This document shows, in pieces, positions 29,297 to 59,816 of a stretch of DNA of 64,000 bases (the first letter of the stretch is position 1; the number at the start of each line of letters is the position of its first letter). This stretch comes from an uncultured Clostridia bacterium (lineage in GTDB: Bacteria > Bacillota > Clostridia > Christensenellales > UBA1242). Both the position numbers and the translations under genes were made by a program. The stretch spans positions 16,856 to 80,855 of the forward strand of contig CAKVHI010000005.1 in NCBI GenBank assembly GCA_934747965.1, given 5' to 3'. Below the pieces are notes generated by a model that ran no database searches, had not been told where the DNA came from, and saw nothing but the letters and a program-made list of their open reading frames with translations.

Positions 29297-29301
29297 TTAA
29301 A

Positions 29302-39171: not shown

Positions 39172-39726
39172 CTATTTTTTAAGTTGTTTATTATAGGCAT
39201 TTTCTAGGCCTTCTAAAGATTTGCTTAATGAAAAAAGATAATCACGCTTAAGATTTTTTTTGCTCTTCAAATAATTTATTGTTCTTATTTGCTCATACTC
39301 ATTCAGATATTGGGCTTTGCACAGAGCCTCTTGTGCGTTTTGACGAGTTTTATAAAATTTATATTTATTTATGTTGGTCAAAATTAATTTATTTTCTTTT
39401 ATATTTGTTTTAAAAAATAAAGCCAAATCTCCAAAATAGGCAACACGAATATAAATGTCGCCGTTATCAACTTTTTCGATTTTATACTCTGTATCATCCA
39501 AAACACATTTTTTGAAAAATTCTTTTACTGTTATAAAAGTTTTAGTGTTTAAATTTTCGGTTATATCAATTTTTTTTATAATGATTTTATTATTTTTGGT
39601 GTAAGAGTATGCTTCAACATATTCTTTTTTAGCATCCAAAATATAAACTGGCTCGTTAAAATTTTCTTTGTCGACAAAGAGAGTGTTTATAACAAAATTT
39701 TTCTTTAATTTGTTTAAATATTTCAT
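39172..39726 (-). CDS. Hypothetical cytoplasmic protein
   Basis: 184-aa ORF with SD AAAGGAA. No recognisable motif. Confidence 0.5.
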   Translation of the reverse strand: MKYLNKLKKNFVINTLFVDKENFNEPVYILDAKKEYVEAYSYTKNNKIIIKKIDITENLNTKTFITVKEFFKKCVLDDTEYKIEKVDNGDIYIRVAYFGDLALFFKTNIKENKLILTNINKYKFYKTRQNAQEALCKAQYLNEYEQIRTINYLKSKKNLKRDYLFSLSKSLEGLENAYNKQLKK

Positions 39727-40569: not shown

Positions 40570-40575
40570 GAAGAT

Positions 40576-40604
40576 ATTTTAATCAAAATTGTTGAATTTG
40601 TAAA
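40576..40604 (-). promoter_or_regulatory. Promoter abutting the TtcA-like ATG (leaderless geometry)
   Basis: On the minus strand: TTTACA (40604-40599), 17 nt, TAAAAT (40581-40576), 6 nt, ATG at 40569. No SD. Confidence 0.55.
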
Positions 40605-40647
40605 GAAATTTTTTAGGGTTTTTAATTTTTAATATCTTTAAATTTGT

Positions 40648-40677
40648 TTGACAAAAATCGCCTATTAATTTTATAAT
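40648..40677 (+). promoter_or_regulatory. Promoter of the giant lipoprotein gene
   Basis: TTGACA (40648-40653), 18 nt, TATAAT (40672-40677). About 70-nt 5' UTR, then SD GAGAGGA (40744-40750). Confidence 0.55.
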
Positions 40678-40755
40678 TATATAAATTATAATATAATTGT
40701 GAATTTATGTTATAAAACTTGCAATTATAAACAAAATAATTTTGAGAGGAAATTT

Positions 40756-43700
40756 ATGAAATTAAAAAAAATTTTAACAATTTTGGTATTTTCAGTTTTG
40801 GCTTTTACAGGCGCTGTTTTTGGGTGCAAAGATAAATATGCAAATTTCAGTATTCAAGTTAATGGTCAAAATGAAATTACATTAAGAGCGGGCGACTATG
40901 CAACTGATGAATACCCTAACTCAAGAGAAATTGAAATTTTAATCAAAAATGCGCCAAACAATAATTGTCGTAATATTTCATATTCTGTTTCTCAAAATAA
41001 TATTGTTTCGATTGAAGAAATTTCATCTACAAGTAAGGATATTAAAAGGTACAAAATAACGGCACTAGACAATATTTCGGCTTTTGAGCCTTCAACAGTT
41101 ATAACTTTCAAAACTTCAGAGGGAAACAAAAGTTGTGATTTGAAAGTTAATGTTCAAATTCCTCTTCAATCTATTTCGGCAAATTTGGCTTACAATTCTT
41201 TTGTTGTAAGCGATAATAAGCCTTATTATATTGACGCTTCAAAGGCACTTACTTATTTTCCTAAAAACACAACAGATAGAGATGTTGAGTTTAGTTTAGT
41301 TGAAGGCCTTATTGATGGTGTAACTTTAACTTTAAACGGCGAGATTAAAGTTGATGAAGAAAAATATTTTGGTCAAGAAAATATTTCTGGCAAAATAAAA
41401 GTTAGAGCAACAAGCAAAACAAAAAGTGAAAGTTATGCTGATTTTTATGTTTCAGTTTTAAGAGATATTAAATTGAGTGATTTAACACTAGGTTATGACT
41501 TAAATGGCGTTAAATATTCTTACAGTGGGGATGTAAGTGAAGAAGAAGAGAATTATGAAAATTCTATTTCGTTTTTAACAAAAAATGGAATAACTTTATC
41601 TAGCAATGTAAATGAACTTAAAAATGCAAATTTTAGTGTTAAAATTAATGAGTCATTTGGCTTAAATTTTGAACAAATTGAAACTAAATTTGAAAGTTTA
41701 ATTCTATCAAATATTTTGGTGGAATCTAATTACTCAAAAGATGACAATAACACAAAAAATTACATAATTTACACAAAAAATCCCGGAAAAGATGTTTTGA
41801 ATATTACAATAAAATATAAAAGTGTTGAAAATTATTCAAAAGAAATTCAAATTCCGGTAACCGTGCTTGAATATCCAACATCACTTGTTGTTAATAACAA
41901 TGCTGGCGAAAGATATGATATTTTTGATTACTACAAAAACAATGTAAGAGGTCAAGAGTTTGCTGTAAGCATTTCTCAAATCGGTGCTTACAATGATAAG
42001 TTTAAAGTTTTGATTTCAGAAGAAGATTTTAATTTTGTTGAAATAAGATACCAAGATGAATTGTTAGGTTATAATGAATTGACAAGCAGAGCATTTGCGA
42101 ATAACTCTAGTTTGTTTGTTATTGCTAAAGAAATTCAAAACGAAACCAAAGAAATTAAGTTAACATTTTATTCGGATATATTGAAAGATAAAAATTTAGA
42201 AGAAATTACAGATGATTTTAACAAAAAATTAATCAAAGAAATTTCTTTAAATTTGGTGCCAGGGGTTAGAAGTTTGAGTTTTGAAACTCAAATTAATCAA
42301 AAAGAAACTTTTTATCTTGAAAAGTCAAACAAAGAGTTTAATGTTCCTTTTGTTGTAAATAACTCAACAAATGGAATTAAATCCTTAAATGAATTTATTA
42401 ACCTTGAAATTGTTAGTGGCGAAGACTTGGTTGAAATTTCAAAAGATGTAGATCAAGGCAAATTTGTTTTGAAAAGCAAAAATAAAACAGGGCTAGTTGA
42501 GTTTTATTTGAAAAGTCAAAATGGAATTGAAACAGCTCATAAAAAATTGCTTATTTATTCTGGACTTGATGACAGTCAAACAAATCCTTTTGAATTTGTT
42601 TTGTCAAGTAGCAACATAAAAACAGTTGTTAATGAAAACAACGAAACAAAATATTACATTGGCTCGACTTACGGCAAAAACTCAGCAAACTTTAATGTTT
42701 TAAACAAATATGATGCAACTATTTATAACGCAGAAATTAAAAGCAGTAATAATGCTGTTAAAGCAACAGTGCTTGATGCTGAAAACTTATTATTTAATTT
42801 GTATGCAAGCGAAAATATTGAAGAAAAAGTTACAATTACTGTAACAATTTGGGTTTATAATGATTTTGATAAAGTAAACGAAGACGGCAATTTATGCAAA
42901 AAAATTGAAATAGATTTTGATATTTATACTTATGAACCTTTACAATCTGTTAAATTTAACAATGGTCAGTTGTTTGACAGAATTACTTTAACAGACGGCG
43001 AAGGTCTTGATGTGGATAGCTTAAACAACAAACTTAATATGCTTGACTTGAATAAACTTATAAACATTCAAGGGACAACAACAAATGTTACAAAAAAAGT
43101 GATTTTTCCTTCTGAATTAATCGAAGGTGCAGACTATGATGTTGAAAACAAAGATGAATTGTTTGATGCAATATATTTTCATGTTTACAAAAATCATCAA
43201 AATAAATTCATTGATGGAAAATTTGTTTTTGGATTGACGATTGAAGTTTATGATTTGGTAGGAAGCAATGAGTCTTATAGACTAACACTAACAGTTGAAC
43301 TAAAAGAACAAACAAAGCCCGAAAAAGTTGTGATTAAGAATAACGGCGGATTTGTTTATTTAGATAATCTTGGAAATGGACTATCTCAAATTGAAGCCGA
43401 GGTTGTTGGTGAAAATCGAAAGGAAGCAACCAACAAAAACTTATACTTTAAGATAGTTGACGGAAACAGCATTGTTTTGGATAATAACACAGGTGTTGTT
43501 ACTGCTCAATCTGCGGGTATAACAAAAATTAGGGTTTATGCAAAAGCAAGTAAATATTCATCTAGTGGCGACTATTCAATTTTTAGCGATGTTTATGTTG
43601 TTAGTGCAGACGGAAGCAAAAGTTTTCCTTACATTTTGCAAAATAATCAATTTATTGAAAATAGTTATTACACACTAAATGAAAATGTCGTGTTAAATTC

Positions 43701-46700
43701 TAGTCTTTCTTTGAATATAAAAGGAATTGACGGAAAGTTTAGATATGCAAAATATTCAAATCTTTATGATGAAAATGCAACTTATAGTTTGATTTTTAAT
43801 GGAACAGGTAGTGTTTTTGAAAAAGAAGAATTTGTTGGAGAATTAGAAAACTTAAATGTTATTTATAACAAAAATTCAATCACAATAAATTCCAAAAATT
43901 TTGGGCTTATTGCCTCTAAAAATTCGGGAACTATAAAAAATGTCAATTTGATTGTAAACAGTCTAACAATTCATAACAACGCAGAAAATAATAACATTGG
44001 CTTGTATTTTGCCGAAAATGTTGGCAACATTGAGAACTGTACTATAAGCTCTGCTGAAAGCGACTATGCAAGTATTTTGATTGACGGAAAAGGAGCAAAT
44101 TTTGGTGGTTTTGTTGCAATAAACAAAAAAGATGGCGATAAGTGTGGAAGCATAACATCGGGCTTTGACTTTTTAAAAACTAACAACCACAGTGTGGCAA
44201 GATTAAGAATTATTGACCTTACAAGTGCTCAAGACCATTGCGTTGCTGGCTTAGTTTCAGAAAACAGCGGAAATATATCAGGTGTTCAAATTGAAGCAAA
44301 AATTGAAAGTAATGCAAAATTTGTTGGGGGAATTGTTGGTAAAATTGTCAGTGAAAACATTAAATATAAAAACTTACACTTTAACGGAAGCCTAATATCA
44401 AAAAATGCAAACTCTGTTGTTGGCGGGATAAGTGCCTATGTTTCAAGCAATTTTAGTGAAGATGGCACAGATTTTAATTTAATTTTTGTTGAATTTACAG
44501 AAAGCATTGCTGATAATAGCACACACTTTTCTGGTCATACAGTTGGTGGATTGTTTGGAAGTGTTAATTTTGGTGGTCAAAACAGAACTAATGTAAAATA
44601 TGCTTATGCTCAAAATTTTGCAAAAGTTGGTCAAAATTCATCAAATTTGAAAGGCGATGTTGTTGGAGGTCTTGTTGGAACAAATGCAAGTTTGTTGAAC
44701 ATAACCGCTGTTTATAGTGATGTTAAAATTTTGTGTGAAAAAGATGCAAAAGGTGCTTTTGTTGGTGCTATGAAAGCGAATACTGAAATAGACAATGCTT
44801 ACAGTTATGTTACAGGTGTTGACAGTTTGTTTGGCGAAAGAGAAGAAAACAAGATTTTAAAACTTGTAAAAATTTATTCAACAACTTCTAAGCAAGAGAA
44901 ACTTTCAAATGATAATTTTGTTAGTTTCTTTGATAAAGATAATTATGCTAGTGTTTTAACTTTAAAAAATGGAAATGGTGAATTTGTTTTTAACGACAAC
45001 AAATATTTTGCTTGCTTTAGCGCTCAAAATGGTGGCTTACCTTATCTTGTATATAATGAAACTGACGGCTTTAAAAAGTTGATGACGGTTGTTGCAACAA
45101 GTATTAATGCAAGATTTGTTGTTAAAAATGCGGTTGAAAACAGTAATAATGAATATGTGTATGGAAATGCTGAAAACATTATTGTTGTTAAGGATGATGA
45201 ACTTAATAAGGCAGTGATTTATTTTAACAAAAATTTGCAATTTAATGTTGAAGATATTTTAAATATAACCACAACTCCTTATGATGCAAACAAAAATTTT
45301 GAGTTTAGAAGTTTGAATAATAATGTTTTGTCTATCGTTAATGGAAAACTTATCATTAATTCTGTAGGAAATGCAACAGTTGAAATTTCTTCTAAATATA
45401 ACACTAATGTTAAGACTTATGCTTATATTTCGGTGGTTGATAAGATTGAAACTTTTGAAGTTGAGAATAAAATTGTTATTGCAAATGGAAAAACTAAAGA
45501 AGTTAATGCAAAAATTTTGCCAAAAACCGCAAATAATGGTTTGTATTTTGTGGTTACATCTGACCTTGCTGATAAAATTTTGATTAACAACAAACAAGTG
45601 CAAGAGAATGTTGTTTATCACTTAGATTCAAGAACAGTAATCACAGCACTTGACACCTGCAAGGGAATAATTAAAGTTTATCCTCTAACAATGGTTAAAT
45701 TTGGCGAACAAGACTATGTGTTTATTGATTTCGTAAACAAAAAAGAAATAGATTTTAGCGTTATTAATAGTGCAAAGAGTGTTGTGGCATCAGTTAATTC
45801 AATTATTGTTCCTGAAAACGAGAAATTGGAATTTGAAGTTTATGTCGATTGCACAGAAAGTGAGAACGACCAACAACTAAAATTTGATGACATAGAAAAT
45901 CTTACAAAATATTTTGAGATTGATGCTAGCAAAATAGAAGTAGGCTTAAATTCAACAAAATTTGTGGTTAGCGTTAAGGCTAAAGATTTGGCACTTTCAC
46001 AGGACCAACCTTTCACATTTATTATTCATCATGTTTTAAGTGGCGAAATATCCGATGCTTTTGCAAAAGTAGATGTTGTGCTAAAAAGCTCTAAACTTCA
46101 AAGTGTTGAACTAAATCATTTCTCAAGCAGTGTTACTTATTACAAAGACTACGATATTATAAACAAAGAAACTATTCCTAATTTTAACATCGTTAAAGGC
46201 AATTATGGTGTTCTTAGCATAAATTTATACCCAAGTTATGCTAATGTAACAAACATTGATGTAACAAGCTCTATTCAAAATGGACACAGAATTAACTTTT
46301 CACAACTAAAACTTGAAAGCGAAAATAAACTTACAGTAACTTCATGTAAAGACACATTGTGGACAGGTATAAAACTTAATGTAGACCGAGATGAAATAAA
46401 AGAAAATGGCGGAAACTTGTTTGTTGCAACCCTTCTTACAACAGATATTTTAGATGACACAGTTTTCACTATTACAGTTACTTGCTATAACTCACTTGGT
46501 CAAAAATATGAGCCAGTTTCTATCAATTTGAAAGCCAAGGCATTAACAACTTTAATGCTAACAAACCCTAATGGGAGTGATGAATTTTTTGCTCCAAGAG
46601 GTGGCGAACTAAAAATTGATGTAAATCCTATTAATATGGATGAAGATTTTAAGATTGGTGCTGAAAACTTTGAATTTACCATTGAAGATAGGAATTTAAA

Positions 46701-52700: not shown

Positions 52701-55700
52701 TGTTGTGAAAGGGTTAACTATAGATAACACTTATGCTTCTGGGTTTGTAATAAAAAACAGTGGTGCGATTTACAACTCTATTACAACAGGAAATATTGAA
52801 TTTATTGATAACAATTATAATATCGCTAGTGTCAACACCGAAACATCAAAAATATTTGGCTTTGTACAAGAAAATTCAGATACAATCGTAAATTGTATTT
52901 CTGCTCAAACCTTGCCTTTAACTTCAGATTTAGGCTCAAATTCACAACCTCATGCTTCATTTGGCGGTGTTAATGCTACAGGCAAATTTGCAAACTGCTA
53001 TGTTGATATGTTGGCAAATGGATATTTCAGCGGAAGAAATATTCCAAATGGACAAAGTTATGTTGATTTTAACAGTATGTTTAATAAAGAAAACGGTTAT
53101 ATAAGAAAAGGCTCTTTATCTAACCTTTGGTCTGAAAACGATGCTCAAGTTATGTATGGATATGCTTATCCTTGCATTTCTAGTTACAAAAATACTTTTG
53201 CAATATTATTTAACACAAAAACAAATGAAGGTTATTATAAAGTTAACAATCTAAGTGCATTTAATTTTGTTATTGATTCTTTGAATAATAACAATGATGT
53301 TACATCAATAAACATTAAACAAATTGCTTCATTTATGGGTGGAGTTTCAAAAATCACACTTAGTGGAACGACTGATGCTTATGTTCAGAAACCTATTGAG
53401 CTTAAGAAATCACTAAAATATGATGGAAACAATTTTGCAATTAATTTGTTACATTTATCTTCAAATTTAATTGAAAGTGAAGGCATAAAAAACAGTTACA
53501 CAGGCTTATTCTATACTCTTTCAGAAAATGTTAACATAACAATAAACAATGTTGCATTGTTAAATGCAAAATTTGATATTGTGTTTGCTGAAAACAAAAA
53601 GAATAACGAGTTAAGCAATGTTGCAAACAACATTTATGCAGGAGCTTTTGTTGCCTTAAATAAAAATGGCATAACGAAAATATCAAATTGTTATGTTGAA
53701 GGAACAATGAAAACAATTCAGGCTTCAAGCCCTAACTTTTCAACTGCTAAAGTTATGTGCGTTGGCGGATTTGTTGGATTGTCTGGAGATAAAGAAGGAA
53801 ATAAAATTTCATCTTGTGTAAGCAAATTGAATATTAATTTAGATTATTTAACAGCAACTAAGTCGTTTAATAAAGAAACGGCTAACGAAATTGGCTATGC
53901 AAGTTTTGTTGGTGGCTTTGTTGGTAAATTAGAAAAAGGAACAATCACAAACAACTTTAACTTTGCAGATGTAACTTGTGCAAGCTCAAAAACTGCAAGT
54001 GTTGGCGGAATTGTTGGCGCAATCAATGCTGGAGCAATAACAAAGAATGTTATGTTTGGTGTTGTGTCTTATAAAGGTGCTTATTTAAGTTACTACAAAA
54101 ATAACAATAACAACAAGTTAAACTATAATATTAATGCAATAGCGGGCGACATTGGTGCAGGGTGCACTACTGAAGACAGCGGAATTAAAAATCAATATAA
54201 TAATCTTTTAAATTTGGTTGGTGATTTAAATATAACTGAAACAAGTTTAACAGTCTTAATGGATTATGTTGATGCAAACCTTAATAATGTTAATAATTTT
54301 GCTGTCGAAAACTCAGAAACCAAAGTTTTTGAGAAACCTGAATATGAGGTTGTAAATAGCAATAATTTAACACTTGAAAGCAATAAAAACTATATTGTAA
54401 ATCATAGTGGTGAAATCAATATTTCTTTAAAAGATGAAAATTTAGAGAAGAATTTGACAAATACAAAAGTTTTGTTTGCTTCTGAATGCACTGTTACAGT
54501 AACTGAAAACTTGTTTAACAAACTAGAAAATTGTGTTATATCAAATCTAAAAATTGTGAGTGAACAAAACTTAACAACTGTAAGTTTGGCAAAAGAAATT
54601 GTAAACACCAAACTTTACAAAATAACTGTTTCTAACATTTGTTTTGATAGGAATGGTAATGATGTTAAAAACGATAATAATCTGGGTAATATTGTGGCGG
54701 TTGGTGGTGTTGTTGACATTGCTAGGTCATCAATATTAAAATCTGTTAAAGTAGAAAACGGTAGAGTTAAATTTGATGCTCAAAATGCTGGAAACACTAA
54801 TGCTGATTATGCTTGTATTGGTGGTGTTGCTGGATATGCAATTTCAACATTGTTTGAAGATTGTCAAAACACTGCAACCATAACTACTGAGCATTCAACG
54901 CAAAATTATAGCACACTTAAAACTGCGGGCATACTTGGATTATCGCAAAACGGATATTTGTTTAAATGCATTAATAGTGGTCTTGTTTATGCTAAAAATG
55001 GAAATAAGAATGCAACAACACAAAATTATGTTGCCGGAATTGTTAATGCATTTAATTCTTCAAATGTGATTTCTTTCTGTAAAAATGAAAACACAGTTAA
55101 AGGTGTTAATAATAAAGTATCAAATGATGAAGGAAATTGTGTTGGCGGAATTTCAACCAATGGTACAGTTTTATTCTCTATTAACAAATCAAATGTTTTG
55201 AGCATTGCAGCAAGCAATAATGAATACATTCAATCAGCGGGCATTATGGCAAGTGAAGATAAATCAGGCAGTGTTATGTATAGTTATCAACTAGGCAGTG
55301 TTATGAGCCAAAAGAATGCCTATGCAATAACTCCTGCTCAGGCAAATTATTGCTATAGCATTGGCGGTGGATTTACTGTTAATGGCACATTAAATTTGAA
55401 TGGTAACAAAACAAATAATTGCTACACTTATAAAGATATCATTGAAAATAAAGATAATTGGTTTAATGATTTCACTGATATTTCAGACTTTGTGGTGGAC
55501 ACAGAGCAAGATATAAAACTTCCAAGAATTAAATTGCTTGATGAAACTGCCTTTACACTTACTGAAACAATTTATAAAGATGAAGATACTAACACAGAAA
55601 AGATAGCATATAAAATTTCAAATGCATTTGAATTGTGGTATTGGTCTGTTTATAAAAGTGCTGACGGTAAAAGCGTTTCAATCGTTGATGACATTGATAT

Positions 55701-58700
55701 GACAGGTTACACTTATTTCACACCTATATGTGGAGAGAATATAACAATTGACGGAAACTTCCACACAATTTCTAACCTAAAAATTGTTGAAACAACTGAT
55801 GGAACTAATAAATATTGGGGATTTGTTGGAAAAAATGCAGGGACAATTCAAAATATTAACTTTGAAAATCCAAGAATAACTATTGACAATATTTCGCAAC
55901 AATCTTCAACAACACAATCTTCAACAACAAGTGGAGAAAGTACGACTAGTGAGAATACAATTTTTGAAGATAACAATTATATTTCTATTGTAGCTGGTCT
56001 AAACTTGGGCAAAATAGACAATATTACTGTTGGTCAGGTTGGCGACACATCATCATTTATTAACATTAACTTTATAACTTCAGACATGAAAAGGCAATAC
56101 ACTAAAATTTATATTGGCACAGTGTCTGGACAAAGTAGTGGTACCGTTTCTAATTGTAATGTTATAAATCTAAGTCTTCAAGCAATAGACTCTTCAATAA
56201 CGCAAACGGCAAATTCTGGATTTATGTTTAGTTTTGAAGGCTTAAACATAGAAAATTATGTTGGCGGAATTGTGGGCTGTAATGATAACACAATTTCAAA
56301 TTGCAATTTTATCTCAAAAATAAAATCTCATTTAACCAACATGCATACATTTGGTATGGGAACAACTGTAAGTGCTGGAGAAACTAATGTTGATATAGAT
56401 TTATATAGGATTTGTTCAGATGCAAAACAATATGTTGGTCAAATTGTTGGAAAAGGCACTTGTGCTAACGATTGTTATTCGCCTAAAACAATTAACTTAA
56501 TTGACATGTTCACAAAAAACAATTATGGCGAAGAAAAATATTCTAGTGAAAGTAGCTCTTATACTGTACCGATTATGGATTTCGATATGAGTAAATTTGG
56601 TGCTGTTCTTGCTAGTGGTGCAATAAAAGGAGCAAAGAGTTTCGGACTTGGGGCGATTGTTGAAATTACCAAACAAGCAACTGTGTCTGCAATCAATAAA
56701 GGAACAATAGAAAGTGTGTTTAATAATTCAGGCTTGAGAGAAACAGCCCCTGGGTCCTTTGTTGAAATTAGAATAGATAGTGTTGAAAATCCTAATCCTA
56801 ATTATATTTACATTAGCCCTTATGTTTCTGGCTTTGAAAATTCAAGCCCTTACATTGCCTTGATGAATGGCACAGATAATAGTAAATTTGGAAAATTGCC
56901 ATATAACGAAAATTTCCTATCTTTAAGTCAATCTAAAAAAGCGCCAAAAAGCGAAAATGGTAATTATTATATTTACGATATCAATGAACTTGCTTATGCA
57001 CTAAGTGAATATTCAAACAAAACCCTTGTGCTTATGGACAACATTGACATGACACGAAAGGTTTGGGATGTTAATACATTAAATAAGAACACAATCATTG
57101 ACAACGGATTTAAGATTGTTTATGGGTCTAATACTGGTTTTAAGGATAAGTTTGAAACGATCTTTGGTGAAGATTTTGCAACTAACATTTTGACTTGTGA
57201 AACATCGAGTGCAAATGAATATGGTAAATTTGAAACACTAACTAAAAACCCAACTGAAATTGCCTACGAAAACTTTATTGAAAGGTTTAAAAAAGTTTGG
57301 AAAGCAGAATATAGTAAAACAAACAATGTGACACCTGCTGGCTTGGATTCGAAATTTAATGAATTAGGAAATAATGAAACAACTTTTGTTGTTCAATATT
57401 CTTCTCAACTTGAAGTGATTGCTGATGCAATGGCAGAGTATACCGCTTGCGGACGTCTTCATAAAGGTATTAACTTTACTGGCAAAACAATCATTATTGA
57501 TAACAATGTTGAATTAACAGAGAATTTATTGTCTTTGGATAGATATAACTATGACAAAAACGATAATAAAGCCCCAAATTTTGTAACAGAAGGTATGTTT
57601 GACGATGACACGACAATTAAATATGGCGAAAACATTGAAAATATTTACCAAACATTTAATGGAACAATTAAAAGCCGAGATGGAAAAAATTATTCTATTA
57701 AATTGACCAATAACAAACAATGCTTGTTGCAAGTTTTAGGCCACAGCGGAAAAATTAAAAACTTAACTTTAAATGCTGAAGCAATAAAAGATATAAATGT
57801 TGATAGCAATTCAAATACATCTTCTTTGGGTGTTGTTGAGAACTATGGCGAAATTAATAACTTTAATGTTGTTAGTGCTAATGCTTTGACAATTTCAAGA
57901 AAAATTAACTTTATTGACCACTTTGTTGGTGTAGACACAGACAACTCAAAACTTTATTCTTCTGCTTGTTTAATCTTTGGCTTGTATTGTGGTTATAATG
58001 CTGGAACAATTCAAAATTGTAATTTCACAAATAGAAATTTGACTATCCAAATAGAAACCACTGTTGTTTATTTTGATGAAAATATAATAACAATTAATAA
58101 TAATGGAACAAACACAGAGGTCAATATTGACACTCATGAAACTTATTCTGGTTATAACCGCATAACTACTGCAACAAATTATGTTGGTGTTGTTAGTGGA
58201 TTAAATATTAATAATATTTGTGATATTAAAATTAATAGTGCAACGCTTACAATTAATTCAACCGCTGAAAATGAAAATTTGAAAGATGGCAAAACTTCTG
58301 AGATTGAATGTGGTTTGGGTGCGGGTTTTGTTAGTGGAATGAATAATTTTATAAAAGATTACACAACAAGTTATACTGATTCTGAAACTAAAGAAAAGAA
58401 AAACATAAATTTGAGAAACATTTTAGTGTTTGAAAGTGAAATTCAAGCGAACGACTTAAGTTATGTTTCGGCTGGTTTAATTTCGGGTGTTTCTGAGTTG
58501 GGATTTTCTGGCTGCAAAGTTTTAGATTCAAATATTACAACAAATATTGCCGATAATGAAAATGTAACAACTGGTGCGATTTCGGGACGTTTGATGCCAA
58601 AAGTTTATAAAACTACCGAAAAATACGAAAGTGTGGAAGTTTACACATCATATTTACCTGAAGTTGAAAGCTGTGTTTCTAGCAATATCAATTTGTTCGG

Positions 58701-59547
58701 ACGAATTAACAGTATAACAATTAGTGAATATAGTAACAAACACGATGGTAAAACATATTCAAGTTCATTCAGTTTTATGTATTACGATTACGTTACCAAT
58801 AATGAAAGTAATAATAGTCCGTTTGGTTATTGTGCTTATTATTGTTCATTTGACAAGGATGGTAATTTAATCAAATGTGAAAACAAAGAAGGTAGTTATA
58901 CAATTAATTTGCCTGAGAACATAAAAGATAGTTTGCAAACTGTTACAAGCAAGGCTTATTATGAACATCATGTTATAGATGGAGAGAATAATGACATTAT
59001 TATTCCAAATGTTGAGTCTGATAAATTAGCAAATTTAAGAATGAAATTAACTTTAAAAGAAGATACAGAAATTTGCTTTACTCTTGTTGACGGAAGTGAA
59101 ATTTACAAAACAAATGATATTGTGTTGAAGAATTTATTTACAATTAGTCTGGTCAAAGAAATTAAAGATGAAAATGGTAAAATAATTGATTATGAAGAAG
59201 TTGAAACTTCAACAGGTTATGAAGACCAAATTATAACCATAAACGGTCAAGAATTTGTTGGCAAAATTACTTTTGGCAAAGATGCTAAAGAAAATATAAG
59301 TAGTGAAGAAGATTTAATTTTAGGTTTTAAATTTAAAGTTACTTATTCAAATCTTAGTATTAATCTTAACATGGTAGTGGGTAACACACTTGGACAAATA
59401 TCTTTGCCAACAGGCTTTAGTTTTGTTGAAAGTTTAGACACTGAAATTACAGAAAATGGAACATATCATGTAAATTATAAATTTCCGGTTGACGGCGTAG
59501 AATACGAAATTAAAAATATTACTCTTAAAAACACAACAAACGGATAA
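40756..59547 (+). CDS. Giant surface lipoprotein (6,263 aa) with Ig-like (Big_2-type) modules and multiple GLUG-type beta-helix repeat blocks
   Basis: Uninterrupted 18,792-nt ORF. Start set at ATG 40756 (SD GAGAGGA 5 nt upstream), not the track GTG at 40699. Signal peptide 'MKLKKILTILVFSVLAFTGAVFGC' has a lipobox Cys at residue 24. Big_2-like 'NLYFKIVDGNSIVLDNNTGVVTAQSAGITKIRVYA'. Dozens of 'VGG[LIV][VFAI]G..N.G.I.N' units. Stop TAA at 59545-59547. Confidence 0.9.
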   Translation: MKLKKILTILVFSVLAFTGAVFGCKDKYANFSIQVNGQNEITLRAGDYATDEYPNSREIEILIKNAPNNNCRNISYSVSQNNIVSIEEISSTSKDIKRYKITALDNISAFEPSTVITFKTSEGNKSCDLKVNVQIPLQSISANLAYNSFVVSDNKPYYIDASKALTYFPKNTTDRDVEFSLVEGLIDGVTLTLNGEIKVDEEKYFGQENISGKIKVRATSKTKSESYADFYVSVLRDIKLSDLTLGYDLNGVKYSYSGDVSEEEENYENSISFLTKNGITLSSNVNELKNANFSVKINESFGLNFEQIETKFESLILSNILVESNYSKDDNNTKNYIIYTKNPGKDVLNITIKYKSVENYSKEIQIPVTVLEYPTSLVVNNNAGERYDIFDYYKNNVRGQEFAVSISQIGAYNDKFKVLISEEDFNFVEIRYQDELLGYNELTSRAFANNSSLFVIAKEIQNETKEIKLTFYSDILKDKNLEEITDDFNKKLIKEISLNLVPGVRSLSFETQINQKETFYLEKSNKEFNVPFVVNNSTNGIKSLNEFINLEIVSGEDLVEISKDVDQGKFVLKSKNKTGLVEFYLKSQNGIETAHKKLLIYSGLDDSQTNPFEFVLSSSNIKTVVNENNETKYYIGSTYGKNSANFNVLNKYDATIYNAEIKSSNNAVKATVLDAENLLFNLYASENIEEKVTITVTIWVYNDFDKVNEDGNLCKKIEIDFDIYTYEPLQSVKFNNGQLFDRITLTDGEGLDVDSLNNKLNMLDLNKLINIQGTTTNVTKKVIFPSELIEGADYDVENKDELFDAIYFHVYKNHQNKFIDGKFVFGLTIEVYDLVGSNESYRLTLTVELKEQTKPEKVVIKNNGGFVYLDNLGNGLSQIEAEVVGENRKEATNKNLYFKIVDGNSIVLDNNTGVVTAQSAGITKIRVYAKASKYSSSGDYSIFSDVYVVSADGSKSFPYILQNNQFIENSYYTLNENVVLNSSLSLNIKGIDGKFRYAKYSNLYDENATYSLIFNGTGSVFEKEEFVGELENLNVIYNKNSITINSKNFGLIASKNSGTIKNVNLIVNSLTIHNNAENNNIGLYFAENVGNIENCTISSAESDYASILIDGKGANFGGFVAINKKDGDKCGSITSGFDFLKTNNHSVARLRIIDLTSAQDHCVAGLVSENSGNISGVQIEAKIESNAKFVGGIVGKIVSENIKYKNLHFNGSLISKNANSVVGGISAYVSSNFSEDGTDFNLIFVEFTESIADNSTHFSGHTVGGLFGSVNFGGQNRTNVKYAYAQNFAKVGQNSSNLKGDVVGGLVGTNASLLNITAVYSDVKILCEKDAKGAFVGAMKANTEIDNAYSYVTGVDSLFGEREENKILKLVKIYSTTSKQEKLSNDNFVSFFDKDNYASVLTLKNGNGEFVFNDNKYFACFSAQNGGLPYLVYNETDGFKKLMTVVATSINARFVVKNAVENSNNEYVYGNAENIIVVKDDELNKAVIYFNKNLQFNVEDILNITTTPYDANKNFEFRSLNNNVLSIVNGKLIINSVGNATVEISSKYNTNVKTYAYISVVDKIETFEVENKIVIANGKTKEVNAKILPKTANNGLYFVVTSDLADKILINNKQVQENVVYHLDSRTVITALDTCKGIIKVYPLTMVKFGEQDYVFIDFVNKKEIDFSVINSAKSVVASVNSIIVPENEKLEFEVYVDCTESENDQQLKFDDIENLTKYFEIDASKIEVGLNSTKFVVSVKAKDLALSQDQPFTFIIHHVLSGEISDAFAKVDVVLKSSKLQSVELNHFSSSVTYYKDYDIINKETIPNFNIVKGNYGVLSINLYPSYANVTNIDVTSSIQNGHRINFSQLKLESENKLTVTSCKDTLWTGIKLNVDRDEIKENGGNLFVATLLTTDILDDTVFTITVTCYNSLGQKYEPVSINLKAKALTTLMLTNPNGSDEFFAPRGGELKIDVNPINMDEDFKIGAENFEFTIEDRNLNQVTFNGNVTEKNGFNFLYDKETKSLFGYKIENGQLVVLSDLQNKRNTILKITPKYKSFVYGKETESVGASIEVKVVDFFVEGISVSDSSDNILKNSLGNSTILKADLLVNSCKEFKYLDSNSNEISGFSYEGGQVIFDNLSRELELSNINLSIESLTNSISKSNYSWNLITQNSSGNLIYNNIKENTTYTNFLVNKDDSGFYYVIGKNVSENRMIVKANLSYENGQVLLKQNSDYEISSEFMLDIKTQSSLDNPLPIYSANDFSQMLAGGDYILMNDITLDENFAGIDTEISSFDGNNKTINIQSFLISSTNQTNLGLFNEIKENTIIKNLKVNILPSLCYAENDYFYGLNINAQMLNSLNFGVICGVNKGVITNCKVVNNNFKIVNNANVFGELKIFVNVNENIEAFVGGLVGVNEGYITNCGVGLNSNDYSNSMIIESKAQMGGLVSVNSKKIAGSYVLNTAIYNNSLSKITGGFVSENQNGAVISTSYVQGYSEKPLEIHESLKDGGIFANGNVGGFVAINEGNVKDCYSNILISTNKRSSGFVYDNSNGYVETCISLSNSSSKTQSFRPFTGNDEENISLNNYGIKYCYYKSEESDLNGGEGEFDEPANGIMNFSDASYFEGFICDDTESSIWSFNKNLMPRLVDADKNIVCERELINSVSSQTEKYQYIYINNNIGILNNPIVVSTTEQFFDALTNENNLYSYYFNGKIRKTNINYNYISIVKDLDLSKIIDKNNNETNTTNEVQKLQDIIFAGNLNGNSMLLENITITAKNDKLKYSSFGLFKQIGVELTYDNSLKIGNEKLDKDNCSVIKNAYFEIDGISATITKTVGTLSGEVINSKLYNINIYNNNNVVVTGNNIVGGVAGRISGNSFVKGVSSNLSVKATFENKTSNYDYLVANSKKVYRYAYNSVEDNINENANIVGGIFGVVDIYQTQIKNFTQHSDGSSYYLDAEITRDNDYLFDNANIQFTQVSGNVQLTGDIVGGLFGYVLNGSKIYDAKFVLNESNTQNLIAGYAVGGVAGINKGLISYATVETQLLRQRVIDKTSQDGYLTSYLFSNANNKAYFVGGLVGVLQNGVLNYSYSKANITAKNSRFVGSSVGAFINSRIEYVYANSYLEAQDEDVQNGVILTQKGYAGFIGTITDFSNSSRISHAVSIIRNTKNSNKFNLSKFVGYNQCKNIDGSKINFEYSNDVEEIDVVGGNSFENNGVGYSYNKYITYDSGTFNGYSNSDCFVRIINKDTFFRLTYNKKGSVTEINNENDLRNMFSNGECVLTKDIYLTSPWEPISEFKGSFYSAKRENRQEGQSEYYKIYNLTINEKSKNVANNVGFFASTSGATISNITFVVGSNFVDPGDGQDPTETDPNWGSDNSKDKIRRGINIINTNVERSYALGILSAQDNGSKITNITLEFSEINDSTDTNVILTNLNYVGGLIGKAVDTNIDGVTIKNLSLKRTTTKNFDAYVGGLIGYVKNTNSEDIKNISFVGNNNVYNLQGKENERSYVGGLFGQIINSKIDGFSVLKEDSKLSVTHNANGVSGARSNVHVGGVAGNIQNVALSKIILNETSVEFTNTYNNLNSVYAGGVAGYAQEANYEDIIVPTSSSVVVLDNSQTSTSSNFVGGLFGQSVGGTLKNVLCSAEVSLEAISSNGQTNVGGLIGRNGNKNNDKFIKGTTLNNIICRGTIIVKDKGKSDCCIGGLIGYNIEADMQDSVFLGSVKYFVQKLENIGGLVGANKNRYKNENGFDLDGKDNNNKNFNGCFFVEDLALLPARNVEYAEYSIDNKGIVSCVGVVKYADFVDESNKILTNRNNDKISCLDKVRSILNNISSIENFEDISEINGETITFKEGSVFNPYIISSEENLKDYKEDKYHLIKKDDLQISTTINKVDENGISLDFNAIIIGNGNKIILNSTSFAQKIAKNGVISGVQFELAGTDKTTFNGNEFVNNVSFIIANENSGVIYNCAIKGNMYVDNKSVAPVVIKNAGIINVVSSMSHIVVKGLTIDNTYASGFVIKNSGAIYNSITTGNIEFIDNNYNIASVNTETSKIFGFVQENSDTIVNCISAQTLPLTSDLGSNSQPHASFGGVNATGKFANCYVDMLANGYFSGRNIPNGQSYVDFNSMFNKENGYIRKGSLSNLWSENDAQVMYGYAYPCISSYKNTFAILFNTKTNEGYYKVNNLSAFNFVIDSLNNNNDVTSINIKQIASFMGGVSKITLSGTTDAYVQKPIELKKSLKYDGNNFAINLLHLSSNLIESEGIKNSYTGLFYTLSENVNITINNVALLNAKFDIVFAENKKNNELSNVANNIYAGAFVALNKNGITKISNCYVEGTMKTIQASSPNFSTAKVMCVGGFVGLSGDKEGNKISSCVSKLNINLDYLTATKSFNKETANEIGYASFVGGFVGKLEKGTITNNFNFADVTCASSKTASVGGIVGAINAGAITKNVMFGVVSYKGAYLSYYKNNNNNKLNYNINAIAGDIGAGCTTEDSGIKNQYNNLLNLVGDLNITETSLTVLMDYVDANLNNVNNFAVENSETKVFEKPEYEVVNSNNLTLESNKNYIVNHSGEINISLKDENLEKNLTNTKVLFASECTVTVTENLFNKLENCVISNLKIVSEQNLTTVSLAKEIVNTKLYKITVSNICFDRNGNDVKNDNNLGNIVAVGGVVDIARSSILKSVKVENGRVKFDAQNAGNTNADYACIGGVAGYAISTLFEDCQNTATITTEHSTQNYSTLKTAGILGLSQNGYLFKCINSGLVYAKNGNKNATTQNYVAGIVNAFNSSNVISFCKNENTVKGVNNKVSNDEGNCVGGISTNGTVLFSINKSNVLSIAASNNEYIQSAGIMASEDKSGSVMYSYQLGSVMSQKNAYAITPAQANYCYSIGGGFTVNGTLNLNGNKTNNCYTYKDIIENKDNWFNDFTDISDFVVDTEQDIKLPRIKLLDETAFTLTETIYKDEDTNTEKIAYKISNAFELWYWSVYKSADGKSVSIVDDIDMTGYTYFTPICGENITIDGNFHTISNLKIVETTDGTNKYWGFVGKNAGTIQNINFENPRITIDNISQQSSTTQSSTTSGESTTSENTIFEDNNYISIVAGLNLGKIDNITVGQVGDTSSFININFITSDMKRQYTKIYIGTVSGQSSGTVSNCNVINLSLQAIDSSITQTANSGFMFSFEGLNIENYVGGIVGCNDNTISNCNFISKIKSHLTNMHTFGMGTTVSAGETNVDIDLYRICSDAKQYVGQIVGKGTCANDCYSPKTINLIDMFTKNNYGEEKYSSESSSYTVPIMDFDMSKFGAVLASGAIKGAKSFGLGAIVEITKQATVSAINKGTIESVFNNSGLRETAPGSFVEIRIDSVENPNPNYIYISPYVSGFENSSPYIALMNGTDNSKFGKLPYNENFLSLSQSKKAPKSENGNYYIYDINELAYALSEYSNKTLVLMDNIDMTRKVWDVNTLNKNTIIDNGFKIVYGSNTGFKDKFETIFGEDFATNILTCETSSANEYGKFETLTKNPTEIAYENFIERFKKVWKAEYSKTNNVTPAGLDSKFNELGNNETTFVVQYSSQLEVIADAMAEYTACGRLHKGINFTGKTIIIDNNVELTENLLSLDRYNYDKNDNKAPNFVTEGMFDDDTTIKYGENIENIYQTFNGTIKSRDGKNYSIKLTNNKQCLLQVLGHSGKIKNLTLNAEAIKDINVDSNSNTSSLGVVENYGEINNFNVVSANALTISRKINFIDHFVGVDTDNSKLYSSACLIFGLYCGYNAGTIQNCNFTNRNLTIQIETTVVYFDENIITINNNGTNTEVNIDTHETYSGYNRITTATNYVGVVSGLNINNICDIKINSATLTINSTAENENLKDGKTSEIECGLGAGFVSGMNNFIKDYTTSYTDSETKEKKNINLRNILVFESEIQANDLSYVSAGLISGVSELGFSGCKVLDSNITTNIADNENVTTGAISGRLMPKVYKTTEKYESVEVYTSYLPEVESCVSSNINLFGRINSITISEYSNKHDGKTYSSSFSFMYYDYVTNNESNNSPFGYCAYYCSFDKDGNLIKCENKEGSYTINLPENIKDSLQTVTSKAYYEHHVIDGENNDIIIPNVESDKLANLRMKLTLKEDTEICFTLVDGSEIYKTNDIVLKNLFTISLVKEIKDENGKIIDYEEVETSTGYEDQIITINGQEFVGKITFGKDAKENISSEEDLILGFKFKVTYSNLSINLNMVVGNTLGQISLPTGFSFVESLDTEITENGTYHVNYKFPVDGVEYEIKNITLKNTTNG
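43606..45060 (+). repeat. GLUG-type beta-helix repeat block 1 (protein-level repeats)
   Basis: Opens with 'ADGSKSFPYILQNNQF'. Contains 'NFGLIASKNSGTIKNV', 'VAGLVSENSGNISGV', 'FVGGIVGKI', 'VVGGISAYV', 'TVGGLFGSV' and 'VVGGLVGTN'. Closes with '...NGGLPYLVYNE'. Confidence 0.6.
47461..58700 (+). repeat. Series of about nine further GLUG-type beta-helix blocks (protein-level repeats)
   Basis: Block-opening heads lie at about 47461, 48760, 50471, 52261, 53231, 55601, 56960 and 57380. Each is followed by many 'VGG.(V/F/A)G' and 'N.G.I.N(C/S)' units. Boundaries are approximate. Confidence 0.5.
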
Positions 59548-59556
59548 ACTAAAAAA

Positions 59557-59600
59557 TATTTTGCCCTACCAAATTTTTGGTGGGGGCAAAAATAATTTTT
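59557..59600 (+). terminator. Terminator after the giant gene
   Basis: TATTTTGCCCTACCA, loop, TGGTGGGGGCAAAATA (imperfect GC-rich stem), followed by ATTTTT. Confidence 0.55.
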
Positions 59601-59816
59601 AATTTAAAATTAAATTTGATATAATTAAGTAAATTTATTGCAAAAACTAAAAAATATAAATAAACATAAACTTTATGAAAAAAAACAAAATAAACGAAAA
59701 AATATTAAAAAAACATGGGAAAAATTTAAAAAAATTTAAAAAAAATTCTGAACAAAAGAAATTTTAGTTAAAGTTAAATTAAAAACAAATTTTAACAAAA
59801 ACTAATAGGAGAAACT

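Follow-up and report, generated by a model that had tools for sequence, protein, structure and literature searches.

Fibrillar adhesins typically carry a single terminal adhesive domain on a stalk of near-identical repeats. Those of Gram-positive bacteria are very long, surface-anchored, all-β and fast-evolving proteins, in which an Ig-like stalk lies ahead of other modules and the anchor is a C-terminal LPxTG motif, and β-solenoid adhesive domains are present in predicted fibrillar-adhesin-like proteins (Monzon and Bateman; PMC9210967). The GLUG domain (PF07581), represented by Bacteroides ovatus BACOVA_03286 (3n6z) and the IgA1 metalloproteases (6xjb/7uvk), is a right-handed β-helix with a defined head and GG-turn coils, and in the IgA1 protease of S. 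pneumoniae the homologous β-helix has no catalytic role and touches the Fab of IgA1 (PMC7695701). A single-chain right-handed β-helix with a Gly-rich motif per coil also underlies adhesion or self-association in E. coli Ag43, Lactobacillus reuteri SRRP and the chlamydial Pmps, the latter with GGA(I/L/V)/FxxN repeats (PMC11166332). In gut methanogens such as Methanobrevibacter smithii and Methanosphaera stadtmanae, adhesin-like proteins combine several right-handed β-helices, with up to seven β-helix repeats, with Ig-like ‘Big’ domains (PMC11532034). Giant proteins predicted from metagenomes include Omnitrophota sequences of >30,000 aa that carry SecA-like domains and numerous transmembrane segments, and repetitive surface-type proteins of gut Clostridia with RCC1, Listeria-Bacteroides repeat or dockerin modules (bioRxiv 10.1101/2023.11.21.568195).

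Here we describe a giant gene (gene A) and its downstream paralogue (gene B) in a 64,000-nucleotide window, the whole stretch of DNA analysed, from an uncultured, endospore-forming, low-GC gut member of the Clostridia that is Christensenellales-like by the labels of related metagenome-assembled genomes (MAGs). No specific account turned up in literature searches on ‘GLUG’ and on giant Christensenellales proteins. The features of the locus, all on the plus strand, are as follows.

40648..40677, +, sigma-70/sigma-A-type promoter-like site, TTGACA-18 nt-TATAAT (consensus match only)
40744..40750, +, Shine-Dalgarno-like GAGAGGA, 5 nt 5' of the ATG (read from sequence)
40756..59547, +, gene A, putative giant lipoprotein gene, 6,263 codons plus stop
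40756..40827, +, predicted lipoprotein signal peptide, aa 1-23, with lipobox V-F-G-C and Cys24 (sequence)
40828..43590, +, N-terminal run, aa 25-945, proposed stalk of tandem β-sandwich (Ig-like) modules (AlphaFold/Foldseek)
43591..45105, +, β-helix block 1, aa ~946-1450, head ‘PYILQNN...’ (head profile, GLUG turns)
45106..47442, +, middle run, aa 1451-2229 (a single match to a Big_2-like motif, aa 1519)
47443..48708, +, β-helix block 2, aa 2230-2651, canonical head, GLUG coils and C-terminal cap (model, profiles)
48748..50355, +, β-helix block 3, aa 2665-3200 (AlphaFold, head profile)
50476..51975, +, β-helix block 4, aa 3241-3740 (GLUG turns, head profile, Pfam Glug)
52243..58575, +, distal array of ~5 further β-helix blocks, aa ~3830-5940 (head profile, GLUG turns, Pfam Glug tiles 7-9)
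58576..59544, +, C-terminal region, aa 5941-6263 (homologous among orthologues)
59550..59601, +, terminator-like hairpin behind the gene A stop, GC core 59563-59587 with A-run and T-run flanks
59817..64000, +, gene B, second, paralogous putative giant lipoprotein gene (MKLKRVVLTVLIMILGLCGSLFGC...), still open where the window ends (≥1,394 aa)

Reading frame and assembly integrity

Gene A is a real single gene under selection. Its translation (window 40756-59547, plus strand) proceeds without interruption to a single terminal stop, as a sequence-only reading of this DNA had claimed, and at its base composition a stop-free run of this length would be expected by chance with a probability of ~1e-252. 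The same call of 6,263 aa is present on ENA contig ERZ27287290:k141_611755. The mature product is computed to have 6,240 aa, a mass of 689 kDa and a pI of 4.9. That reading had also assigned the gene its own expression signals, and the putative promoter and ribosome-binding site are borne out as sequence matches: the site at 40648-40677 agrees with the consensus at 12/12 positions and is the sole perfect match in 40400-60000 (19.6 kb), and GAGAGGA is present ahead of the start codon. The claimed terminator stands in part, as the hairpin behind the stop is stable (dG -19.6 kcal/mol, z -3.3) and has a 3' tail of A5TAAT5, but a consensus terminator scan made no call there.

An assembly chimera, a collapsed repeat or a decaying pseudogene might be suspected in a k141 contig from a short-read metagenome assembly whose product is repetitive at the level of protein motifs. 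However, no DNA repeat >57 nt occurs in the gene A region and the internal protein repeats are only 21-33% identical. An identical neighbouring protein is found on three contigs, and numerous independent MAGs, assembled in separate studies, carry orthologues that are intact and collinear with gene A. Given the lack of repeats >57 nt, the divergence of the internal repeats and the intact homologues, gene A is not regarded as an artefact, for which the chance is practically negligible.

Lipoprotein signal and search for other anchors

The gene A product begins with MKLKKILTILVFSVLAFTGAVFGC, which includes Cys24, and the layout MKLKK-ILTILVFSVLAFTGA-VFG-C24 provides the basic n-region, hydrophobic h-region and lipobox cysteine of a lipoprotein, in agreement with the lipobox signal peptide proposed earlier. 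The signal segment is the only hydrophobic stretch in the whole protein. A signal peptide and lipobox cysteine start most family representatives >2,500 aa, full-length ones included, the exceptions mostly beginning mid-protein, and the cysteine is kept in all orthologous loci. Together, these features suggest that the gene A product is a lipid-anchored membrane surface protein. The sequence-only reading had reported no HExxH, LPxTG, wall-binding or catalytic motif, and this was upheld: motif searches found neither HExxH nor LPxTG anywhere in the protein, and Pfam, NCBIfam and orthologue profiles against PDB sequences returned no SLH, choline-binding, CW_binding, catalytic or toxin family, the NCBIfam scan giving noise only.

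Ig-like regions

An Ig-like N-terminus of ~950 aa had been read from the sequence. The AlphaFold model of aa 20-1219 (alignment of four sequences) is nearly all-β and resembles tandem β-sandwich arrays, but its mean pLDDT is 54. Foldseek searches with this low-confidence model retrieved tandem Ig-like arrays at E values from 1e-21 to 1e-9, the S-layer protein SbsC among them, and a profile search against PDB sequences gave a weak 60-residue similarity (aa ~890-950, E 0.0025) to a domain of the B. anthracis S-layer protein Sap. The label ‘Big_2-like’ did not hold for gene A, where Big_2 (PF02368) scores 12.5 bits at aa ~886-931 (E 0.15), below the gathering score of 22.8 bits; among six orthologues, a single one scores E 0.0023, and a distant relative (P0031) exceeds the gathering score with 28.9 bits. 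An assignment of aa 25-945 to tandem β-sandwich stalk modules may thus be made from the model with low to moderate confidence.

The middle run (aa 1451-2229), proposed in the same reading as a second Ig-like run, contains one match to a Big_2-like motif, with 0.02 expected, and gave no Pfam or PDB match, also with an orthologue profile; hhalign detected no similarity between it and the N-terminal run. The C-terminal region (aa 5941-6263), likewise proposed to be Ig-like and in which no anchor or toxin motif and no Pfam or PDB match was found, is alignable among orthologues, with a common G.Y...Y..I..I pattern.

GLUG β-helix blocks

The remainder of the protein is dominated by β-helix blocks. 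The GLUG β-helix architecture proposed from the sequence is supported by Pfam Glug scores, by a confident model and by the structures to which that model is closest. When the protein was scanned in 660-aa tiles, Pfam Glug (PF07581) exceeded its gathering score of 20.5 bits in tiles 4, 6 and 9 (26.9, 30.9 and 22.8 bits) and was sub-threshold in tiles 5, 7, 8 and 10; it reached 34.6 bits when the C-terminal third was scanned as a single piece. The motif GG[LIVFAM][VFAILT]G has 23 matches in ~8 groups. AlphaFold predicts aa 2230-2580 of block 2 with pLDDT 85-95, and the top Foldseek matches of this block are 3n6z, 6xjb and 7uvk, each with probability 1.0, with a target-normalised TM of 0.50 for 3n6z and an identity to these GLUG matches of only 11-15%. 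Other right-handed β-helices follow at lower probability, among them the adhesins Ag43 and SRRP (0.08-0.21). Block 3 is modelled with pLDDT 65-88 (aa 2660-3140) and has a head probability of 99%. As modelled, blocks 2 and 3 resemble GLUG β-helix domains; the AlphaFold and Foldseek test of the fold covered these two blocks of nine, with partly good confidence over 1,200 of the 6,263 aa.

Block 1 has a head profile probability of 96.5%, GLUG turns at aa 1189-1327 and a short-strand pattern at residues 990-1160 of the low-confidence AlphaFold model. GLUG turns are most closely packed in block 4 (aa 3415-3738), whose Pfam Glug score is the one of tile 6. In the distal array, heads lie near aa 3830, 4222, 4945, 5400 and 5650, with a Ser/Thr-rich linker at aa 5047-5068. 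Profiles thus place nine head caps in the protein, the other four near aa 950, 2230, 2665 and 3244, and the ‘about ten’ blocks counted by eye were roughly right. The head consensus written down in the same reading is fair as a consensus, but as an exact regular expression it matches nowhere, and its looser variants match at most a handful of sites in the gene A protein; heads were located by profile methods because regular expressions matched too little. The blocks are very unequal, and they cannot be regarded as uniform since a cap profile search matched the canonical C-terminal cap in no block but block 2. Columns that do not vary among homologues hold structural residues almost throughout (Gly, Asn, Phe, Ile and Val), and a conserved cluster of acidic or basic residues was not observed.

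Family, locus and rate of evolution

A phmmer search with aa 2200-3399 retrieved at least 174 related clusters (50% identity) at E ≤ 0.001, with the giant lipoprotein family itself on top; many of these clusters are 3,000-6,800 aa long, and every relative with an available source name is annotated as a hypothetical protein. Word-indexed searches with pieces of 1,000-1,200 aa gave 10, 2 and 1 matches and missed the full-length orthologues that the exhaustive search found. Searches of PDB sequences by phmmer with the gene A protein and with orthologue profiles gave nothing useful beyond the weak Sap match, and Pfam, NCBIfam and PDB offer no coverage of the family beyond the GLUG motif. The statement that this is not a described system is correct in that no named relative carries a functional name, but it overlooks a family that numbers at least 174 clusters and has orthologues at a conserved locus. 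Gene A belongs to this small, previously unstudied family. The accompanying view that GLUG goes with a catalytic domain was too narrow, as 3n6z, a 339-residue chain, aligns with the block over nearly its full length and single GLUG head domains are found across many phyla, methanogenic archaea included; Methanosarcinales genomes (loci L042 and L044) encode GLUG head domains that are related to block 2.

A dozen or more Christensenellales-like MAGs from gut samples carry intact homologues of 5,400-6,800 aa at this SpoIIID-TtcA site. Intact orthologues in other MAGs measure 6,265-6,698 codons, and intact homologous ORFs of 5,406-6,698 codons are present at loci L004, L005, L007-L011, L013 and L017; the homologues at L016, L019 and L020 exceed 6,600 codons and run off their loci, and that at L006 is cut at its 5' end. 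SpoIIID lies ~1.7 kb upstream of gene A in every relative examined, with TtcA between them, and the SpoIIID-TtcA pair remains divergent and upstream even where TtcA identity falls to 45-53%. One related locus adjoins homologues of YpeB, SleB and SpoIIR. Gene B is collinear with gene A at 24% identity and has a representative of 3,399 aa (P0034) as its closest family member; a lipoprotein gene follows the gene A homologue at seven related loci. A phage tailspike or prophage origin was rejected in view of the conserved chromosomal synteny and the lack of any tblastn match of block 2 to phage genomes; a megablast search of gyrB-gyrA against plasmids likewise found no match. A polymorphic toxin or contact-dependent inhibition protein was rejected too, as the C-termini are homologous and what follows gene A is no small immunity gene but its giant lipoprotein paralogue.

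Gene A is 35-55% identical between genomes in which the neighbouring TtcA is 82-87% identical. Against seven orthologues, conservation is highest at aa 2200-3100, with a peak at aa 2700-2900 in block 3 (mean identity 0.69-0.73), and lowest in the distal array (aa ~3830-5940; 0.21-0.44), which is the fastest-evolving part. Low conservation of the membrane-distal half is as expected for a part predicted to be exposed at the surface, and the place of the conserved core, in the middle of the protein and not at the tip, may speak for a part in structure or in partner binding, as opposed to the binding of a ligand.

Comparison with described systems

The blocks share with the GLUG proteins of known structure the same head, GG-turn coils and right-handed β-helix, whereas gene A encodes ~nine such domains per chain instead of one and no metalloprotease, G5 or LPxTG part. 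An IgA1 protease/Zmp (M26) was rejected, there being no HExxH or LPxTG motif and no Pfam match to Peptidase_M26 or G5. With the Gram-positive fibrillar adhesins the gene A product shares great length, a predicted surface anchor, all-β composition and fast evolution, and an Ig-like stalk ahead of other modules is also modelled, at low confidence, in gene A; great length together with a predicted lipid anchor agrees with the class, for which this type of anchor is atypical. The polarity is reversed, because the predicted anchor is an N-terminal lipid rather than a C-terminal LPxTG motif; the modules are highly diverged, and there are many rods instead of one tip domain. Ag43, SRRP and the Pmps reach the surface by type V or SecA2 and LPxTG routes and have one helix each, in contrast to the array in gene A. 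The methanogen proteins, also from gut anaerobes, are alike in having several right-handed β-helix domains in one chain, but they belong to another domain of life, are anchored differently and are much smaller. Like the giant proteins from metagenomes, the gene A product is very long, from an uncultured organism and little annotated, but it lacks their transmembrane, SecA-like, RCC1, Listeria-Bacteroides and dockerin features.

Proposed function and alternatives

We favor, with a probability of about 0.55, the reading that the gene A product, with its downstream paralogue, is a lipid-anchored, non-enzymatic fibrillar adhesin or surface fibre. The preprotein would be exported by Sec, and Cys24 would be diacylglycerol-modified and the signal peptide removed (Lgt/Lsp), which would leave the N-terminus attached to the cytoplasmic membrane on its outer side. 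The ~900 aa of β-sandwich modules would then serve as a stalk through the wall and beyond, and the remainder would consist of ~nine rigid, right-handed GLUG-type β-helix rods, short linkers and one more module run. If extended, such a fibre would measure on the order of 100-200 nm. It may bind or coat, with glycans, host material or other microbes as targets of an adhesin, and may act jointly with the paralogous lipoprotein from gene B. Lipidation, surface exposure, extended shape and adhesive function are all inferred, and the high divergence of the modules, the lack of an identified distinct tip domain in the gene A protein and the mid-protein position of its most conserved part argue against an adhesin.

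A surface coat or S-layer-like envelope, in which the products of genes A and B would protect the cell as a dense, lipid-anchored layer or sheath around it, in place of specific adhesion, is unlikely. It would be consistent with the retention of both genes at one chromosomal site throughout the clade, with the perfect sigma-A-type match, which may suggest constitutive expression, with a conserved mid-protein core and variable periphery, with the absence of any other wall-anchoring domain in the Pfam scan and with the resemblance of the N-terminal model and of one sequence match to SbsC and Sap; yet known S-layer proteins are far smaller, SLH- or CWB2-anchored (lipid in archaea) and lattice-forming, no SLH or CW_binding match was obtained from Pfam, and a 689-kDa subunit would be costly for a bulk layer. 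It is quite unlikely that genes A and B specify a previously unrecognised, clade-defining, lipid-anchored, megadalton fibre layer that replaces the S-layer and mediates a physical partnership with other gut microbes or host mucus, with hydrogen-consuming methanogens, whose adhesin-like proteins likewise combine β-helices with Ig modules, as a candidate partner, the core at aa 2200-3100 as the interaction site and the distal half as an immune or phage decoy.

The β-helix is also a common enzyme scaffold, in which a cryptic catalytic site is conceivable, and some blocks of a multi-module carbohydrate-active enzyme tethered at the cell surface could be polysaccharide lyases, hydrolases or epimerases for glycan foraging in the gut, from which the relatives come. 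This is very unlikely: the PL6 alginate lyases, fucoidan lyase, polygalacturonases, tailspike depolymerases and C5-epimerases in the Foldseek list have probabilities of 0.08-0.5, as against 1.0 for the GLUG domains, no lyase or hydrolase family appeared in Pfam or NCBIfam even at E up to 5, the structural nature of the invariant columns, without a charged cluster, speaks against it, and no CAZyme or transporter gene was found among the flanking genes examined, several of which have no family match. A fibre of the spore surface (exosporium or coat-associated) made in sporulation would suit the sporulation genes of the organism, the constant proximity of SpoIIID and the one locus near YpeB, SleB and SpoIIR, but it is highly improbable, as a vegetative, sigma-A-type site is the sole strong promoter-like match and the linkage to SpoIIID may be one of position only, since TtcA, a housekeeping tRNA-modification enzyme, intervenes. 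Moreover, a lipobox tethers a protein to the membrane of the producing cell, and known exosporium fibres attach otherwise.

Significance

Gene A reveals no new mechanism, and its function as a fibrillar adhesin or surface fibre is putative. It clearly exemplifies a giant protein with a predicted N-terminal lipid instead of a sortase anchor, and one in which β-helix GLUG domains are used as serial building blocks without a detectable enzyme. Defining the family would lead to better annotation for hundreds of MAG proteins, since Pfam, NCBIfam and PDB cover only the GLUG motif. Christensenellales-type bacteria are widespread in animal and human guts, and many of their lineages, this one apparently among them, are known from metagenomes only. 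In the genome studied here, the two giant lipoprotein genes take up ~29 kb, with 18.8 kb for gene A and, should gene B encode ~3,400 aa like its nearest relative, about 10 kb for the latter, and, because the site is fixed across the clade, this locus is probably a major cell-surface determinant of these bacteria.

The giant lipoprotein gene and its chromosomal locus

The giant lipoprotein gene (gene A) forms one uninterrupted ORF of 6,263 codons on the forward strand of the window (40756-59547), ending in TAA, where a stop would be expected about every 11 codons at the base composition of the window and an ORF of this length would escape a stop with a probability of about 1e-252. The automatic ORF list places its 5' end at a GTG (40699) upstream of the ATG at 40756. 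The latter is the credible start because GAGAGGA lies 5 nt before it, the resulting N-terminus is MKLKKILTILVFSVLAFTGAVFGC, and the orthologues begin alike. A perfect TTGACA-18-TATAAT at 40648-40677 is the sole 12/12 match within 19.6 kb of AT-rich sequence. The single ORF proposed by the sequence-only reading was borne out, with its Shine-Dalgarno sequence and a promoter-like site. Where that reading placed a terminator, a stable terminator-like hairpin lies 3' of the stop (dG -19.6 kcal/mol, z -3.3; 3' tail A5TAAT5); this hairpin was not called by a consensus terminator scan.

The DNA repeats in the gene A region are all 57 nt or shorter, with only trivial tandem repeats, and the internal repeats of the protein share only 21-33% identity, making repeat collapse or expansion during assembly implausible. 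Gene calls for ENA metagenome assembly ERZ27287290 (contig k141_611755, 112.9 kb) include this 6,263-aa gene, and an identical copy of a neighbouring protein was found on 3 contigs. Intact collinear homologues occur in the related loci L004, L005, L007, L008 and L009 (6,349, 6,270, 6,368, 6,265 and 6,698 codons, respectively) and in L010, L011, L013 and L017 (5,406-5,691 codons), and those in L016, L019 and L020 exceed 6,600 codons and run off the end of the locus; the L007 homologue aligns with gene A end to end at 44.6% identity. Given these short repeats and the intact collinear homologues in many independent MAGs, an artefactual ORF is hardly credible.

The window has a GC content of about 28-30% and a cumulative GC skew that rises steadily along its length. 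It is taken to be chromosomal DNA of an endospore-forming Bacillota because it carries the following genes.

Marker genes in the window
8676-13220, gyrB and gyrA
23280-24806, spoIVA
35806-36420, M23 peptidase with SpoIIQ-like similarity
38810-39061, spoIIID

The order SpoIIID, TtcA (divergent, upstream) and giant gene is kept even where TtcA identity is only 45-53%. Six sizeable ORFs of 184-618 aa (28250-30660, 32760-35265, 36894-38750 and 39172-39726) gave no NCBIfam match, nor did any of the five also scanned with Pfam match there; the 184-aa ORF adjoining TtcA shows 54-56% identity in L004, L005 and L007.

Downstream of gene A, a paralogous ORF (gene B, MKLKRVVLTVLIMILGLCGSLFGC...) starts at 59817 on the same strand and exceeds the window. 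Its 1,394 visible residues are collinear with the gene A protein at 24% identity, and the family representative nearest to it has 3,399 aa. Wherever the sequence of a relative extends far enough downstream (seven MAG loci), a second lipoprotein gene directly follows the giant gene. The gene B product carries an acidic Ser/Glu/Asn-rich tract directly past its lipobox. Within the 270-nt spacer, an A-rich 10-nt tandem repeat of about seven copies (AAAAAAATTA, 59678-59747) lies upstream of the gene B start and could affect its promoter or DNA curvature.

Lipid anchor and domain architecture

The sole hydrophobic segment of the gene A protein is an N-terminal signal peptide ending in the lipobox V-F-G-C24, and by its sequence the protein qualifies as a lipoprotein. 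A signal peptide with a lipobox Cys, as a rule preceding (K/G)D.Y, also opens most of the family representatives above 2,500 aa; those without such a start are mostly sequences that open mid-protein, as expected of truncated gene calls. Motif, Pfam and hydrophobicity searches of the gene A protein found no LPxTG, C-terminal hydrophobic segment, SLH or choline-binding repeat. Given the single hydrophobic segment, the conserved lipobox and the absence of these other anchor motifs, the predicted N-terminal lipid anchoring is well supported on sequence grounds, as the sequence-only reading had proposed for Cys24.

The only Pfam family detected was the GLUG motif, which exceeded the gathering score when the C-terminal third was scanned and in three of the 660-aa tiles, and fell below it in four tiles. 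A home-made profile identified 29 strong GG-turns in eight clusters (aa 1189-5193), with weaker ones to aa 5821. Alignment with ten homologues gave a block consensus composed of a head, 'NP.PI..F..M..G..YILMNDI.L...SFDGNNK.I.I..F', a repeated coil, 'GGFV..N.G.I..SY', and a C-cap, 'F..F...IW......P.LV'; the regular expression earlier offered for the head matches nowhere in its exact form. Using the ten-homologue alignment, AlphaFold predicted short strands throughout, with pLDDT 85-95 at aa 2230-2580 and 65-88 over most of aa 2660-3140, the model being unreliable at aa 3140-3399. Among PDB entries, Foldseek ranked highest (probability 0.75-1.0) B. ovatus 3n6z (target-normalised TM 0.50) and the Gram-positive IgA1 proteases 6xjb, 7uvk and 6xja, followed at low probability by other right-handed beta-helices (lyases, tailspikes, Ag43, SRRP); a viral library agreed with this, one of its matches being a phage protein annotated 'putative IgA1 protease'. 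The protein contains genuine GLUG-type beta-helix domains, and structure prediction of blocks 2 and 3 upheld the fold suggested for them. Comparison of a head profile with a six-orthologue alignment profile (hhalign) located nine heads, close to the roughly ten blocks of the sequence-only reading.

Block heads in the gene A protein (approximate position, hhalign probability)
aa 950, 96.5%
aa 2230, 99.4%
aa 2665, 99.0%
aa 3244, 98.7%
aa 3830, 97.1%
aa 4222, 92%, partial match
aa 4945, 98.3%
aa 5400, 87.6%, partial match
aa 5650, 95.4%, partial match

The blocks differ greatly from one another, and a canonical C-cap is detectable in block 2 (aa 2230-2651) only. Within the block starting near aa 4945, a Ser/Thr/Gln-rich low-complexity tract (SQQSSTTQSSTTSGESTTSENT; aa 5047-5068, 55894-55959) coincides with a 15-nt tandem repeat (55899-55929); it may serve as a linker, flexible or glycosylated. 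Stand-alone units comprising a head and GLUG, about 300 aa long and with 25-30% identity to block 2, were found in Bacteroidales, Spirochaetia, Kiritimatiellae, Deferribacteraceae and methanogenic archaea (loci L023-L059, mostly MAGs, including the Methanosarcinales MAG L042 and Methanimicrococcus hongohii L044), which points to a building block shared across domains of life. Together with 3n6z, the many single-domain matches show that the earlier statement tying GLUG to a catalytic domain was too narrow.

The N-terminal region (aa 20-1219), modelled by AlphaFold with an alignment depth of only three other sequences, is almost wholly beta, with strands of 5-11 residues. At a mean pLDDT of 54, this model matched long tandem beta-sandwich arrays in Foldseek (E 1e-21 to 1e-9), including a Dictyostelium nuclear pore complex chain, protocadherins, S-layer SbsC and C3b MG domains. 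With an orthologue profile, a single sequence match was obtained, a weak one to the S-layer protein Sap of B. anthracis (E 0.0025) at about aa 890-950. Big_2 was sub-threshold at the same place (E 0.15), and membership of the protein itself in this family was rejected; one orthologue gave E 0.0023 and the distant relative P0031 exceeds the threshold. Of the Ig-like/Big_2-like modules read here from sequence, the tandem beta-sandwich character was supported in part, by the low-confidence all-beta model, and Big_2 was not. On the low-pLDDT model, the tandem-array matches and the weak Sap and Big_2 similarity, a beta-sandwich stalk is plausible, with at most moderate support. Residues 1451-2229 had no match in Pfam, the PDB or elsewhere in the protein, and contain one Big_2-like motif (aa 1519).

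Distribution and evolution of the family

An exhaustive phmmer search with aa 2200-3399 against 1.84 billion representatives, in a library carrying no protein names, returned 174 proteins at E <= 0.001, of which 60 reached E <= 1e-30. Three length classes were apparent: five full-length proteins of 6,224-6,681 aa (45-62% identity) with shorter entries starting mid-protein, proteins of mainly 4,700-5,600 aa (about 31-36%), and a third class with lengths of roughly 3,200-3,500 aa. Where the matched protein is full-length, the aligned part almost always sits near its residue 2,100-2,600, indicating that the first ~3,300 aa represent the conserved core architecture, past which the gene A protein has a distal extension of ~3,000 aa. 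Word-indexed searches returned relatives with no functional name or precomputed Pfam domain; these searches never returned the query or the 6,000-aa orthologues that the exhaustive search recovered, and very long proteins may be under-recovered in this way. All close relatives, sharing 50-67% identity across aa 2200-3399, come from MAGs carrying the labels Christensenella, Catabacter, Christensenellales or Clostridia, whose stated sources are all gut (Hadza people, a human gut catalogue genome, goat caecum). Consecutive large genes without Pfam match were seen in the distant relatives L002 (ENA ERZ28615137 scaffold_742; 4,118, 1,056, 1,501 and 1,773 aa) and L003 (Logan SRR29050539_72348; 1,832 and 1,325 aa), either because family members were divided or duplicated in these lineages, as may be the case, or because gene calls are fragmented.

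Gene A identity is 35-55% between genomes with TtcA identity of 82-87%. A comparison of eight orthologues shows the strongest conservation at aa 2200-3100 (0.51-0.73). The 2,200 aa N-terminal to this stretch are less conserved (0.34-0.55), and the part from aa 3400 onward is the least conserved (0.21-0.44).

Proposed role of the gene A protein

Searches with Pfam at a lenient E-value, NCBIfam and the orthologue profile against PDB sequences found no catalytic, toxin or wall-binding family, in line with the lack of catalytic motifs noted at the outset, and nearly every position that does not vary between homologues holds Gly, Asn, Phe, Ile or Val. The protein lacked the features sought for an IgA1 protease/Zmp, a beta-helix enzyme or an S-layer protein. 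The C-termini of the orthologues are homologous to one another, which argues against a swappable toxin tip, and a polymorphic toxin was likewise rejected.

Following Sec export and lipidation at Cys24, the N-terminus of the protein would be tethered to the membrane; the beta-sandwich modules would form a stalk, and nine beta-helix rods would reach outward with linkers between them, such as the Ser/Thr tract. An Ig-like module spans about 4 nm and a beta-helix coil 0.48 nm, from which we infer an extended length of the order of 100-200 nm.

The favoured reading (probability roughly 0.55) is that of a fibrillar adhesin or surface fibre, by analogy with the homologous, non-catalytic beta-helix of pneumococcal IgA1 protease that contacts the substrate Fab (PMC7695701), the beta-solenoid domains predicted as adhesive modules in fibrillar-adhesin-like proteins (PMC9210967), and the adhesin-like proteins of gut methanogens, with up to seven beta-helix repeats per protein plus Big domains (PMC11532034). 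The faster divergence of the membrane-distal half also speaks for this role and fits exposure to hosts, phages or competitors. A surface coat is a possible but clearly weaker candidate. A cryptic carbohydrate-active enzyme is unlikely, as the Pfam, NCBIfam and PDB profile searches yielded no catalytic family, and a spore-surface fibre is less probable still. Although proposed to work like fibrillar adhesins, the gene A protein would differ from them in its predicted N-terminal lipid anchor, and hence reversed polarity, in modules that are diverged rather than identical, and in serial beta-helix rods with no tip domain found. The gut Clostridia architectures in a survey of giant proteins also differ from it (bioRxiv 10.1101/2023.11.21.568195). 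Gene A is notable for its size, its absence of annotation and its two-gene locus conserved in an uncultured gut clade, in which the function we infer for its product would be that of a fibrillar adhesin or surface fibre.
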